From: Escherichia coli
GTDB taxonomy: Bacteria; Pseudomonadota; Gammaproteobacteria; Enterobacterales; Enterobacteriaceae
Assembly (NCBI RefSeq): GCF_045037415.1
Contig: NZ_CP173440.1
Strand: one strand, 5' to 3'
Length of the DNA: 64,000 bases
Shown in pieces: positions 52,801 through 58,800 of the stretch. Within the stretch, counting starts at the first letter, position 1. Each line of letters starts with the position of its first letter. Position numbers: made by a program.

Positions 52801-55800
52801 ACGCGAAGGCCGCCTTAACTAAAGGTGGAATACTTTACGGAGCAACCATACTTGGTGATAAGGTAAGGCATAATAGTTTTGCGTTAAAACTGTTGCAAAT
52901 TTATAACAAAAAAGGTATTTTTTCTAATTTTAGTGATTCAGAAGAAGAACTAAAAAAAATGCTTTCTCATTATTTTAAAAATATTGATGTCATTGTGAAA
53001 GGTGCTGTCGCAATGTTCTCTGCGCATGGAAAAAAATAGCTATTTATCATTTTTTCCTGGATTTATCTTTTTTAAAAACACCTTGTGAACTGATCCCATA
53101 GTTTATATTAAGCGACTAACAGGGCTTGGGTTCGGTCCTCTACCGGACTCAGGCCTTTTTGTTTTATTCTTTCATGGTTGTAATAGTGGATGTACTCATC
53201 TATAGCCATGCGCAACTAGCTGATATTCTTATGTTCCTTCAGGTAAAAACATTCAATCTTTAGCGTACCGAAGAAGCTTTCCATTACTGCATTGTCGTGA
53301 CATTTTCTCTTTCTTGACATGCTCTGTTTCAGGCCGCTGCCCTTAAGTCGCTTCTGATAATACGCCATCTGGTAGTGCATCTAATTAGTAGAACATGTAT
53401 TTTTCAATGAAGGCCCCGATGACTTTTTCATGCAGCTCAACAGAGCGTGAGAAACAGACGGTCGGCGAGCCAGGCGTTTGATTCGGGTTCTCAGCGTCAG
53501 ATTGTTTCGCTCAATGCGCTGAGTAGAGATTTTGCCGGTCAGATGCTTATCCTTCGGCACCTCTCTGGCGTAACTTCCCAGTCATCGCTGGTTATTATGC
53601 TGATATTAAACGGTGTGAGCAGAGCCAGCAGCGCACTGCAGGTTGCATCGGTCCGTGGCCCAAAAGTATAGGCCAGCACACCACCTGTTTTCGTGTTGTA
53701 CGCGTACCAGAGCCAGTGCTACCGGGCTTTGCTGCCGACCTCCATTGCTCGTGGAGTTCGCAGATGAGCGCCACATCGGCATGAGCAACCGGAGATGTGG
53801 TTACTCGTCGTGGCGCGAGTTTTTTAAAGTGCGAATAACGGTGTTAATGCCGATTTTGAGTGTCCTTGCGGTATCACAGACGCCGGCTCCGTTGAATGCC
53901 ATTTCGGTAATTTTCTCTTTGACGCCGTGCTTGCGTGCTTCATAAGTATAAGTGAGCAGAAACACGCGGTAGCAATCGCGGCAGCGAAACCGGTCACGGC
54001 CTTTAGGGCTCTGCCTGTGGCGGAAAACTTGGTCAGACTGACAACGGGGGCAATGAACGGTAACGCTGGTCATGAACAAACCTCAAAAGCACGCATCATA
54101 CATCAATTCAATTAATTAGAGGCATTGATCTCCTCCCTGAAAACAGTGCCGTCTCCTCGCCTCGTGAGCTCACACCAACAGAAGCACCGGCAGAAATAAG
54201 AATCCCTGGTTTCTCCTGATACTATTTAATAATTTCTGACAGGGCCTGACCTGCTTTCTGAATATAAACTGGTTGCGAGACCTCACCCAGCTGATTGGCA
54301 ACCATCCGGGTTTCATAATGACTGGCAGTTAATACCAGAGCTGGCCCGTGAATACAGGACAGTTGTTCAACTACTGCCTTTAACCATTGACCTGAAAATA
54401 TCTGTTCTTTCGGGTCATCGAACACCTTTGGAAAATCAGCACCGGCGATGGTCAGCTTCATTGAGCCATAGACGTCTGGGGAGAATATTTTCCTGATTGA
54501 AATCGTATCGCTGGTTAACCCCAGAGCTTTACATAACCACTCCATTCCGGTCTCTGGGGTACTGGTAATAGAGAGGGTAGCCGACGTCAGTAACGCACTA
54601 CGCCACTGAGTGCAGTATCTGCCCACATTCATCCCGATAAACGGGTTTACAGCGATCAGGGCTGGTTCACGACGTTTATTGGAAACGCCTACGCCCTTTT
54701 GCCCCCGGACAATCCGAGCATATCCCTGCTGTAGATACAGTCAAAGAAAGCTTTCCGGGCCGCTTCATTTTTTATTTTCCGCCCTACCTTTGATAAGGCG
54801 TTAAAGCTATTGTCAAACAAGGCAACCGCTGCAGGCGTACTACAAAAATGCAGATCGCCCGCTATCGAAGTCACGTCGTTCATTAACTGGTCGATGACAT
54901 GCACGCCATTACGTGGAATATGTTCATTGAACGCACTAGTCAACTCTCTGAGGTTGAAGCGCCGCTGTTTCCAGACCTCAAGCATATCTACAAAAATGTC
55001 TGCCTCATCAATAATGAGGTACATATTTTCTTTGTCACCGAGGATGCGGTGATTACACATACAGTCGACCATTACCATCGCATGGGTCGTAACAATAAAG
55101 TTAGCACTGAGAGCATTCAGGCGAATATCATCAATGTCCTGTATATCATCCCAGATGGAGTAGGTGACCATCTCTGGCGTGATCTGCGCTGGCAGTTCAC
55201 CATACTCTTCTTCAAACTCAACCAGAGGTTTTGACCAGTTAGCGAGTTTTTCAAGGACCTTAACCGTATCCAGATCGGTAAATTCGTCCATGAGTAACAG
55301 TCCACGTACTTTCTCCAGGGATACGTAATTTACTTTCCCCATAAGCCGGGAAAAAGTAACTTTTATGCCGCATTGTTCAGCTATCTGTTCAAGGAGAGGA
55401 CGATCGCTTCTGAATATCTGGTGCATCAGTGCATGAGAATTCGTGGCAATCACAAATTTTGCCTCAGGGTTTTTCAGCAGAATCAGAAGCGCCGGTACCA
55501 GATAGCCCAGCGTTTTTCCTACACCTGTTTCAGCACTAATCAGTGCAACTTTATGATCCTGAGTCAGTGCACCAGCTGCAGCCTCGATATAATCCTGTTG
55601 GACCTTACGTAACGACAATCCGGCAGACTCAAATACCGCTGATGTATTCATGACTACTGCCCCGCCAGATGCATGAAACCGCAACCAAATACGCGTTTAG
55701 GGCCTACGCCATAAACGATTCCCACTTCAGCTTCCTGTTGATTGCTGATTATGGCGGTACCCTGTACCGTGAATACGGGTAGCGTAAAACCACGTCCAGC

Positions 55801-58800
55801 ATTTCCTTTGTCGATATGGACGAATTTCGGGCCACTGACGACGATTTGACCGGGTTTAAACCCAGCCTTCGCTAATTTGGTGAGGGCCAACTGATAACTA
55901 GCCTCTTCAGATGGAGCAAACTGGCGTCGGCCACGGCCTTCTGACTTTGTTCCTTTATGAAAGATGGCCATTAACGTAATGAACTTGATTTCATGGCCCT
56001 CAGAGAGAATAAGCTCTCTTTTTTTCTCCCCAGGCAACTCCAGAGCTGTAGCTGTGCGGACCAGGAGTAACGAATCATCCCCGGTACCGGGAAAAATTTT
56101 AAAAGAGTACGGCAGCTTCTCTCCCTTACGTTCCTGCATGAAAAAATCCAGGTGCTGGTGGATCTGGTAAACACTTGTGTGACGGATACGCAACCGAAAC
56201 GCATTATCGTAGTAAATCATGGTTATACCTTTTTCAAGAGGTGCAAAATGCTCAGGCGTTGATGGGGATCAGTCGGGGCTTTGTTGAATAAATAAGATTT
56301 CGTGCGAACGACCCTGTAGCTGGCTGGATTTTCAGGCAATACGCACGCTTTCTGGCATCCCAGCCTTTGTCATCCTGTTCAACGCACGCACCATGGCCAT
56401 AGCTTCCGCTACCTGACCATCGTAGTCACGCAGCGTCAGTGAATCTCCCAACAACTGCTTCATTCTGTACATTGCCGTTTCCGCTATCGAGCGACGGTTA
56501 TATTCCGTTGTCCATTTCCACCGTGCATTGCTTCCGCTCAGCCGCTGATTAGCAACGGCACGGTTGCGGTCTGCGTACTCACCGGGCCAGTAACCTGCTC
56601 CTTTTCGGGGAGGAATAAGCGCGCTGATTTTTTTGCGGCGCATTTCATCGTGACAAAGCCGTGTATCGTAAGCCCCGTCTGCCGCGGCTGCCCTGATTTT
56701 TCTGTGAGTCTGCCGGATAAGGCCCGGGAAGGCTTCTGAGTCCGTGACGTTATTCAGCGACAGGTCTGCACAGACAACTTCATGTGTGTTGCTGTCAACA
56801 GCAAGATGCAACTTTCGCCAGATACGACGGCGCTCTTTGCCGTGCTTTCTGACTTTCCATTCGCCTTCACCAAAGACCTTCAGCCCGGTGGAATCAATCA
56901 CCAGGTGTGCGATTTCACCCCGGGTGGACGTTTTGAAACTGACATTAACCGACTTTGCCCGCTTACTGACACTGGTGTAATCCGGGCAGCGCAACGGAAC
57001 GTTCATCAGGGCAAAAATGGAATCAATAAAACCCTGCGCAGCCCGCAGGGTCAGCCGGAATACGCGTTTAATCACCAGAACGGTGGTGATGGCGAGATCA
57101 GAATAGCGCTGGGGCCTTCCTCGTGATGAAGGCGTTGCCGACTCATACCAGGCCTGAATCGCCTCATCATCCAGCCAGAAAGTGAGGGAGCCACGGTTGA
57201 TGAGAGCTTTGTTGTAAGTGGACCAGTTGGTGATTCTGAACTTTTGCTTTGCCACGGAATGGTCTGAGTTGTCGGGAGGATGCGTGATCTGATCCTTCAA
57301 CTCAGCAAAAGTTCGATTTATTCAACAAAGCCCTTTGACATGCACAATTATTGTCTGCCCAATAGTCCGATAGTTAGCCTGTTTACAAAAACTGTTGCTG
57401 GTCATACTGGTGCTTTATTCCCGGTTAAGCGGGCTAGTTAACCCAGAGTGATGAACCATCCTGGAGTGGCAGATAAAGCAGAAAGAATGGATTTGTTGCC
57501 CTGATTTTTTCCGAATCTAAATAAAGATTAGCTTAATCACTCGTTGTTATGTTATAACATTAAATTAGCAATATTCTCAGCCAGCAGCACGGCCTGTGGG
57601 GGGCGGTTATTGAGAACGAATTCGGTGAAATCTGTATAGATGATGCATTGGTTATCAATGCAGATGAAGAAGTCTTCGAGATGAATAATGGCTGCATCTG
57701 CTGCACGGTGCGAGGAGATTTGATTCATATCCTGAGTCGTCTGATGTACCGCCGCGATAAATTTGACCGTATTCTGATCGAATTCCACCGGGATGGCCAA
57801 TCTACTGAGTGAAGCAAATGAAGAGAGAGCCGCTAACGATCCTGAATGGTTTTCTTAGTCCTAGTAAAAACATGCGGTTAAAAATTTGTTAATGCAGACA
57901 CCTCAACCACAATTTCGATGTGCGTCATCGTGAACGATTTGAGCGGACAGGATGTCGGCGGCGTCCTGATTGCCAGTATAGAAATCAAGAAGGAACACCA
58001 TGAAGCGCAATACCGTAAGTAATCTGACAGAAAAAGATGATTTTGATACGCTGGAAAGTATTCTCAGCGTTAATATTCATTCTCTGTTGCGGCCAGACGG
58101 CGGGACGTTGCTTTCTGACGTCCATTTTGCGGTCAAAGCAGGAGAATGTCTGGCCATTATCGGGCCTAACGGCAGCGGTAAAACTTCCCTCGTGAGAGCG
58201 ATTAGTCAGGAACTGACCCATCTAAAGGGGGACATTCTTCTGCGGGGCCGTTCTATGTCTGCTTTATCCCGTCAACAGCGAGCCCGGCTGGTTGCTGTTT
58301 TGGCCCAGAATGATACACCTGATACGAGATTATCCCTTGAGGATTATGTAGCGCTGGGGCGTATCCCTCATGCCGGGGATGTACCGCGTAATGTACATGA
58401 CGCGATTGTAGCAAATGCCATTAAAGAAACCGGATTACAACGGCTACGCAGGCGGTCACTTTTATCGCTTTCCGGCGGCGAAAGACAACGAGCGGCGCTG
58501 GCACGGGTACTGGCACAGACGCCCGACCTGGTATTGCTTGATGAACCCACCAATCATCTCGATCCTCCCGGGCGCGAGGAACTGCTTTCCCTTGTAAAAA
58601 ACAAGGGGATTGCCGTCGTGGCGGTGTTGCACGATCTGACACTGACAGAATCATTTGCTGACCGTGTTCTCCTCTTGTCGCAGGGGCAATCAGTGATCTG
58701 TGACACACCGGAGAAGGTATTGGTATCAGAATACCTTTATCCCGTTTTTGGCTTGACCAGTTTTACCGTACCGCATCCCCATACAGGAAAGGCGTTGCGT

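Follow-up and report, generated by a model that had tools for sequence, protein, structure and literature searches.

CRISPR-Cas systems of type IV-A3 are well described on Klebsiella plasmids of the IncHI1B/IncFIB family (PMC6965323, PMC7434947, Benz et al. preprint, PMC11519345). A working system requires a Cas8:Cas5:Cas7x6:Cas6 complex assembled on a CRISPR RNA (crRNA), together with the helicase DinG (bioRxiv 10.1101/2023.06.23.546257). Here we examine a 64,000-nucleotide (nt) stretch of an Escherichia coli contig (NZ_CP173440.1, RefSeq assembly GCF_045037415.1), hereafter the window, in which a gene for a Cas6-family protein stands directly before a broken dinG/csf4 gene between two insertion sequences (ISs). 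A reading made from the sequence alone, referred to below as the original prediction, had taken this pair for a decayed type IV-A locus that was eroded by IS activity and had no array. Matches to type IV-A3 profiles, close collinearity with intact type IV-A3 loci, the absence of the rest of the system from the window and from the virulence plasmid pK2044 and the reconstruction of a deletion adjacent to IS903 all speak for this interpretation. Hence, we consider it very probable that the locus is an eroded, nonfunctional relic of a plasmid-borne CRISPR-Cas system of type IV-A3 in the pLVPK/pK2044 virulence-plasmid lineage.

It should be noted that the system is already known and its genes are already annotated in RefSeq (cas6 as type I-E), and nothing mechanistically new is described here. 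A full-text literature search of a limited collection, which included the two founding papers on Klebsiella type IV-A, the Benz et al. preprint and the pEGY22 paper, found no description of the relic on plasmids of the pLVPK/pK2044 type.

Gene content and assignment to type IV-A3

Two intact type IV-A3 loci from Klebsiella IncHI1B/IncFIB plasmids (NZ_CP072906.1 and NZ_LR890313.1) served as references. In both, the gene order is csf1-cas6-dinG-csf3-csf2, an array with 13-15 GTATTCCCCCCGCATGCGGGGGTTATCGG-type repeats comes next, and the PADLOC profiles matched by their proteins are Csf1_2_IVA3 (E=2.5e-122 for the full csf1), Csf4_0_IVA, Csf3gr5 and Csf2_1_IVA3. Positions 56276-54156 of the window are collinear with positions 8995-11116 of both loci, with a single gap and an identity of 98.4% to NZ_CP072906.1 and 99.0% to NZ_LR890313.1. 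This alignment, one of the checks initially proposed, allowed the deletion, the lesions and the IS junctions to be mapped on the reference loci, and it defines the content of the relic as the whole of cas6, with the final 54 nt of csf1 before it and 80% of dinG behind it (Table 1). Window position 56276 corresponds to position 8995 of the references, where csf1 ends at 9048, and in tblastn the stump matches residues 248-263 of Csf1.

Table 1. Features of the relic and of its immediate flanks, in window coordinates
Feature	Position	Strand	Basis
C-terminal fragment of an IS3-family transposase, adjoining the IS1-like element	53216-53380	minus	NCBIfam transpos_IS3, E=1.5e-18, profile 286-337/369
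Degenerate IS1-family element	53376-54124	minus	inverted repeats 53376-53393 and 54107-54124; InsA/InsB
Short filler (about 21-31 nt) that separates the dinG breakpoint (54156) from the IS1-like element's end	54125-54155	none	matches neither neighbour
dinG/csf4 pseudogene, codons 1-499 of 624	54156-55651	minus	Csf4_0_IVA, PDB 8S35_M, tblastn
dinG nonsense codon TAG (CAG in intact loci), codon 477 of the original frame	54222-54224	minus	allele comparison
dinG frameshift site, G6>G5	54702-54706	minus	C5 on the plus strand (G5 coding), 6 in intact loci
cas6 (type IV-A3 Cas6/Csf5, Cas6e-like)	55654-56220	minus	intact 188-codon open reading frame with S83L; profile matches
csf1 (Cas8-like) stump, last 17 codons and stop	56223-56276	minus	homology to intact loci
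IS903-type (IS5-family) element, 1056 bp	56277-57332	minus	terminal repeats GGCTTTGTTGAATAAAT...; IS5-family transposase

The product of cas6 matches the PADLOC profile Cas6_0_IVA3 over residues 1-187, that is over its full length, with E=4.6e-82 and a score of 272 bits, as opposed to 37-39 bits (E of about 1e-9 to 1e-10) with generic Cas6 and Cas6e profiles. Residues 72-186 also match the Pfam family PF08798 at 33.3 bits, above the gathering cut-off of 25. The two motifs on which the protein had been assigned to the Cas6 family, SVYQIHQHL and GVGPKRVFGCGFMHLAGQ, are both read in its open reading frame (ORF), and the agreement of Cas6_0_IVA3 and PF08798 bears that assignment out. Residue H21 of the YQIHQHL motif and the glycine-rich loop G-GPKRVFGCG, which are nearly invariant in an alignment of homologues, are likewise present, and the protein is 99% identical to Cas6 of intact IV-A3 loci. 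A phmmer search of the PDB with the relic Cas6 gave no match. The RefSeq protein annotated at this gene, WP_004902370.1, is named 'type I-E CRISPR-associated protein Cas6/Cse3/CasE'; the profiles place it in type IV-A3 Cas6.

Profile searches for Csf4/DinG were equally positive, so that both genes fall in IV-A/IV-A3 profiles. Of the 666 positions of Csf4_0_IVA (PADLOC), the two dinG fragments match 6-339 (E=1.9e-123) and 361-510 (E=1.6e-49), respectively. The first helicase piece aligns, from residue 1 to residue 319, with the same residues of chain M in PDB entry 8S35, the solved DinG of the K. pneumoniae IV-A3 system (E=8.4e-209), and tblastn with an intact DinG finds residues 1-320 and 317-499 in the relic. 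A 331-residue ORF (54689-55684, minus strand) holds AETGVGKTLGYLVP and IIDEADIF, and a 136-residue ORF (54222-54632, minus strand) holds TSATLS; all of the motifs by which the gene had been recognised as a DinG-like helicase are thus accounted for. We place the start of dinG at the ATG (55651-55649), which a 2-nt spacer separates from the stop codon of cas6, because RefSeq annotates the same start and because residue 1 of the product aligns to residue 1 of 8S35 chain M. The 31-nt overlap of cas6 and dinG in the original prediction did not survive this analysis, being an artefact of taking the earliest TTG as the start.

Lesions in dinG and missing components

Three lesions were found in dinG. 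The break in frame suspected at a C/G run near 54700 is a one-nucleotide deletion in a homopolymer, seen as a single 1-nt gap in alignments to the two reference loci and to plasmids pEGY22_CTX_15 and pRJBSI76-1, and the shifted frame reaches a stop codon at 54689-54691. A sequencing error is excluded, since the G5 run is shared by pK2044, by the NCTC418 plasmid and by many independently assembled records whose identity to the whole 2,141-nt query is 100.0%. The second lesion, overlooked in the original prediction, is a nonsense codon common to pEGY22_CTX_15, pRJBSI76-1 and the NCTC418 plasmid, beyond which dinG homology continues as far as 54156. The third is a 3' truncation beside the degenerate IS1-like element, with everything past codon 499 (the last 378 nt) gone. 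The product consequently ends at codon 477 and the DNA at codon 499, both of them before the QSVGRGIRS of the intact protein, which lies after residue 499, and GILISAGASVGV lies after the premature stop. In terms of superfamily 2 (SF2) helicases, we take QSVGRGIRS to be motif VI-like and GILISAGASVGV to be motif V-like, and with this naming the helicase does end before motifs V and VI, as had been proposed.

Searches for the remainder of the system recovered almost nothing. Searched by tblastn with Csf1, Csf2 and Csf3 of NZ_LR890313.1, the window and the complete pK2044 (224 kb) each yielded only 16 residues from the end of Csf1. The window contains neither a copy of the 29-nt IV-A3 repeat with up to 3 mismatches nor one of its stem core, no CRISPR-like tandem array was found in it, and blastn-short of the repeat against pK2044 returned nothing longer than 11 nt. 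The window thus contains no CRISPR repeats and, apart from the csf1 stump, no Cas7-, Cas5- or Cas8-like genes, just as had been reported, and the search of the whole of pK2044 yielded nothing beyond the Csf1 tail. The annotated records inspected contain no cas1 or cas2, although no dedicated Cas1/Cas2 search was made. When six features of a functional IV-A3 system are considered, two are present (a IV-A3 Cas6 and an IncHI1B/IncFIB plasmid) and four are lacking (a full-length DinG, Csf1, Csf2 with Csf3, and an array). With no Cas7, Cas5, Cas8, crRNA source or working DinG, there is therefore no interference complex and no DinG-dependent silencing.

When the spacers of the two intact arrays were compared to pK2044 and the window, the only BLAST match was 18 nt long and involved one spacer of NZ_LR890313.1. 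This spacer (spacer 6, 13629-13660) shares, by eye, 23 contiguous nt (23/32) with pK2044 183236-183258, near the ter region, the shorter BLAST match having been obtained with a trimmed spacer. The stretch was rejected as a real pK2044 target, given that the first nine spacer positions are mismatched, and it probably represents a sequence akin to the true target, not a functional protospacer.

Flanking elements, plasmid context and reconstructed history

The bracketing of the pair by an IS903 and an IS1-family element was found as described originally. The transposase of the former is annotated as IS5 family (WP_004225014.1), both of its terminal inverted repeat ends could be read, and the inverted-repeat sequence makes IS903 its presumed name. 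The ORF for the transposase (56332-57300) is oriented toward cas6, and the element borders directly on the csf1 stump. The element is 100% identical to the IS903 copies of the NCTC418 plasmid and pRJBSI76-1, and its two flanks in the window have no 9-bp target duplication in common. On the other side of the relic, the IS1-like element, which one record annotates as IS1N, has 18-nt inverted repeats that are 83% complementary, an intact InsA (53801-54079) and an InsB in fragments, with NCBIfam transpos_IS1 matching three separate ORF fragments. The filler between this element and dinG is present in every relic copy examined and is not found in the intact loci.

Positions 53000-58000 of the window are 100% identical to many large K. 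pneumoniae plasmids, and the relic itself is 100% identical in pK2044 (NTUH-K2044; positions 6267-8387) and in hundreds of IncFIB/IncHI1B plasmids, with hypervirulence markers including rmpA and the iuc operon as neighbouring genes. Among PLSDB records, the junction of the truncated dinG with the IS1-like element is complete in 416, including pLVPK, and the junction of IS903 with the csf1 stump in 344. Fixation of the relic extends to at least 416 PLSDB plasmids, pLVPK and pK2044 among them, and is clonal.

Comparison with the intact loci also accounts for the 3' side. Positions 15602-17210 of NZ_LR890313.1, which cover the 3' end of umuC and an Xre/RES toxin-antitoxin pair, correspond to positions 30012-31620 of pK2044 at 97.8% identity and in the same orientation as the relic. 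Between the relic and Xre/RES, pK2044 carries 21.6 kb of IS debris, a methyltransferase gene, rmpA/D/C, peg-344, iroBCDN and fecIRA, and this virulence block therefore occupies the place of the missing 4.5 kb of CRISPR-Cas, umuD and umuC.

A fuller form of the relic, in which csf1 is kept, occurs in at least about 55 virulence plasmids. For example, in the NCTC418 plasmid csf1 is intact (263 codons) and is preceded by three backbone genes that are also found upstream of intact loci, with its IS903 copy lying in the same orientation 2,425 bp further out. Likewise, pRJBSI76-1 has csf1, the three upstream backbone genes and an outer IS903 flank identical to that of the window, and the window equals this plasmid minus its positions 5371-7795, the deletion beginning exactly at the IS903 terminal repeat. 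These precursors, with csf1 and with IS903 2,425 bp upstream, indicate that a deletion with one border right at the IS903 end produced the arrangement in the window.

Taken together, these comparisons suggest a history of four steps. The collinear homology shows that the ancestor had csf1-cas6-dinG-csf3-csf2-array-umuDC-Xre/RES, in an IncHI1B/IncFIB backbone that gave rise to the pLVPK/pK2044 lineage. The end of dinG, csf3, csf2, the array, umuD and most of umuC would then have been lost, with the IS-bounded rmpA/peg-344/iro/fec block in their place; this replacement is evident from the alignments, and it would presumably have been a single event. Next, dinG would have gained its nonsense codon and its homopolymer frameshift, both of which are observed directly. 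With IS903 situated 2.4 kb upstream of csf1, the 2,425-bp deletion would finally have taken the three backbone genes and all but the stump of csf1; the deletion is evident by comparison to pRJBSI76-1, and intramolecular transposition of IS903 is its likely mechanism.

Several features of the surroundings were also recorded. Beyond the outer IS903 end (57334-58000) lie short CobW/GTPase-like ORF fragments (e.g., GCICCTVRGDL at 57648-57812), apparently a pseudogene, and an iron ATP-binding cassette (ABC) transporter operon begins at 58000. On the other side, rmpA is 3'-truncated in the window (51253-51843; a 196-residue ORF with a foreign tail), an IS1A copy (50522-51280) interrupting it at about 51275-51280. 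The pK2044 segment 11270-31613 (rmpD/C, peg-344, iro, fec and Xre/RES) is absent from the window, which therefore comes from a deleted derivative of the classical virulence plasmid. Further away, at positions 62405-62540, the 8-mer ATGGAAAT stands 17 times in perfect tandem; by comparison to pK2044, a methyltransferase gene lies on one side of this tract and a gene for a CobW/ZigA-like GTPase on the other, and overlapping BLAST hits indicate that the copy number of the 8-mer may differ in pEGY22_CTX_15.

Recombination with intact loci

Three conjugative plasmids combine relic and intact sequences. They were found via similarity to the first recombinant and hence form a biased sample.

In pEGY22_CTX_15 (NZ_ON261191.1, 5995-8116), csf1 is intact, cas6 is a divergent allele and dinG lacks the frameshift. 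Between the equivalents of window positions 54570 and 54419, within dinG, the sequence switches from the intact to the relic allele, after which it carries every relic-specific single-nucleotide polymorphism (SNP), the nonsense codon, the IS1 junction and, downstream, rmpA. This plasmid was rejected as an ancestral intermediate, since the different cas6 allele and the abrupt SNP switch identify it as a recombinant, and the distribution of alleles indicates that the event is a homologous crossover inside dinG. A possible reciprocal crossover product, a second cas6-dinG copy, was not found in positions 1-50000 and 290000-323133 of the record. The cas6 of this plasmid (6051-6617) differs from that of the reference loci (9051-9617) and of the window at about 8% of nucleotides (88% protein identity), next to a dinG 5' half that is nearly identical; such localised divergence suggests either allelic replacement or diversifying pressure on IV-A3 cas6.

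In pRJBSI76-1 (NZ_CP068690.1, 7796-9920), two patches of the intact allele (55448-55430 and 54778-54693) lie amid relic-specific SNPs, and the second includes a repaired homopolymer without the frameshift. A pre-frameshift ancestor was considered and rejected here as well: sites 54778 and 54693 carry the allele of NZ_CP072906.1 and pEGY22_CTX_15, a pattern that points to conversion. In pEGY_KP3 (CP154635.1, 7421-15546), 7.6 kb comprising the relic and rmpADC/peg-344 are nested in the dinG of an otherwise intact locus, where an IS903 end of 111 nt and an IS1 end of 108 nt enclose them and where they replace positions 9727-10798 of NZ_LR890313.1. The genes beside the relic include rmpA in pEGY22_CTX_15 and pEGY_KP3; none is annotated there in pRJBSI76-1.

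Judging from these mosaics, recombination between the 2.1-kb relic and intact IV-A3 loci of co-resident multidrug-resistance plasmids still takes place, and we attribute it to the sequence they share and not to a function. The relic may be a place where virulence and resistance plasmids exchange DNA repeatedly.

Alternative explanations

The reading of a decayed, nonfunctional relic has to be weighed against several observations that do not favour it. The cas6 gene is an uninterrupted ORF, its product is found unchanged on at least 1000 contigs, a count that no other listed member of the 90%-identity cluster reaches, and residual activity in trans may exist. Expression by read-through from the co-oriented IS903 transposase gene is also possible, to judge from the arrangement of the two genes. 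When changes on the relic branch were polarised with the two reference loci, cas6 showed 2 changes in 567 nt (one synonymous and S83L; 0.35%) and dinG 11 in 1497 nt (4 synonymous, 5 nonsynonymous, 1 frameshift and 1 nonsense); the two rates do not differ (Fisher p=0.53), and it should be noted that 2 changes in cas6 leave this test almost no power. In addition, the order of events rests on few plasmids, of which pEGY22_CTX_15 and pRJBSI76-1 are recombinant, and the timing of the frameshift relative to IS903 is not fully secure.

These observations bear above all on whether Cas6 has been kept alone for another RNA-processing role, the alternative raised in the original prediction. According to this explanation, Cas6 is made by read-through from IS903, binds or cleaves IV-A3 repeats or the similar I-E repeats in trans, and modulates the CRISPR conflicts of the virulence plasmid. 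Besides the open frame, the abundance of the protein and the orientation of the transposase gene, it could draw on the retention of the nearly invariant H21 and the glycine-rich C-terminal loop, and on one plasmid that keeps cas6 alone from the relic (query positions 1-704). The similar rates in cas6 and the dinG pseudogene nevertheless offer no sign of retention, and S83L replaces a serine, in the stretch FITSMAIFHKG, that all aligned full-length homologues without a frameshift have, at identities as low as 68%. Moreover, csf1, in the precursor just as intact as cas6, was later removed by a simple deletion, a scan for promoters and terminators (53300-57600) found no promoter-like site between IS903 and cas6, with promoter-like counts at the level of shuffled controls, and neither the window nor pK2044 offers a repeat substrate. 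The abundance of the protein, finally, reflects the clonal spread of one plasmid lineage and not independent retention. Selective retention of Cas6 is accordingly disfavoured, and we regard this explanation as quite improbable. The more specific proposal that an orphan IV-A3 Cas6 acts as an extra processing enzyme, or as a decoy sequestering crRNA, on the repeat RNAs of co-resident IV-A3 or host type I-E systems would be very improbable; if true, a trans-acting orphan Cas6 would tilt CRISPR-mediated plasmid conflicts toward the hypervirulence plasmid. We read cas6 as a gene not yet broken in a dead locus, with no sign that it is needed, and it is still open because it is short and the decay is recent.

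It could also be argued that the relic persists as a patch of homology that aids recombination or cointegration with IV-A3-bearing IncHI1B/IncFIB resistance plasmids and so gives rise to hybrid virulence-resistance plasmids. The allele switch in the dinG of pEGY22_CTX_15, the patches in pRJBSI76-1 and the nesting in pEGY_KP3 speak for this, as do 951 matching places in 885 records, which imply that some plasmids have two such places. However, the three plasmids form a biased sample, the junctions in pEGY_KP3 are fragments of IS ends rather than homologous crossovers, and most relic plasmids, including conjugative hybrids such as that of locus L001, carry the relic unchanged. Since recombination is expected at any shared 2-kb sequence without selection, it would be a consequence of the relic and not a reason for its persistence, and an advantage of this kind seems extremely improbable. 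Finally, the position of the break in a homopolymer and the type I-E name in RefSeq might suggest that the frameshift is a sequencing error in a functional locus, or that the gene is a stray type I-E Cas6e unrelated to type IV. This notion, to which we assign next to no probability, is refuted by the G5 run shared with pK2044, the NCTC418 plasmid and many 100%-identical records, by the nonsense codon, the 3' truncation and the lack of csf1-3 and of an array, all of which remain even without the frameshift, by the score with the IV-A3 profile relative to the generic ones, and by the gene order and nucleotide identity that tie the locus to IV-A3.

Implications and comparison with known systems

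As a decayed IV-A3 locus, the relic changes nothing that is known of how type IV-A3 works, and its significance lies in plasmid ancestry and annotation. The relic and its flanks reveal a common backbone for the classical virulence plasmid of K. pneumoniae and the IncHI1B/IncFIB resistance plasmids that bear IV-A3, and in the former the rmpA/iro/fec block sits where half of a CRISPR-Cas locus, umuD and most of umuC once were. Because the relic Cas6 is so widespread and carries the RefSeq label of a type I-E Cas6, surveys of gene presence could wrongly score hypervirulent strains as carrying CRISPR-Cas components. Recombination at the relic in at least three hybrid plasmids bears, in addition, on the convergence of virulence and multidrug resistance on one plasmid.

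Compared to the type I-E Cas6e of E. coli (PF08798), the relic Cas6 is alike in its C-terminal half, which matches that family, in the N-terminal YQ-H-Q motif and in the glycine-rich loop (G-GP-...-G-G), and it presumably resembles the E. coli CasE sequence itself in the same way. The relation is only distant, however, as the E-value of about 1e-9 shows when set against that of the IV-A3 profile, and the relic gene stands outside any type I-E operon. On its csf1 side, the locus resembles deletions adjacent to IS903 or IS1 that are produced by intramolecular transposition: the deletion starts at the IS903 terminal repeat, the outer flank is as in pRJBSI76-1 and there is no target-site duplication, and the end-points suggest that this mechanism operated here.

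With respect to the IV-A3 systems of Klebsiella IncHI1B/IncFIB plasmids (NZ_CP072906.1 and NZ_LR890313.1; DinG in PDB 8S35), the relic differs in that csf1 is reduced to 54 nt, that dinG is frameshifted, nonsense-bearing and 3'-truncated, that csf3, csf2 and the array are absent, and that it is bounded by IS903 and IS1 debris, such that an effector complex cannot assemble. What it has in common with them is the replicon family, the 3' end of csf1, the upstream backbone that its precursor forms retain, and cas6 and dinG in the same order and spacing, with DNA that is 98.4-99.0% identical.

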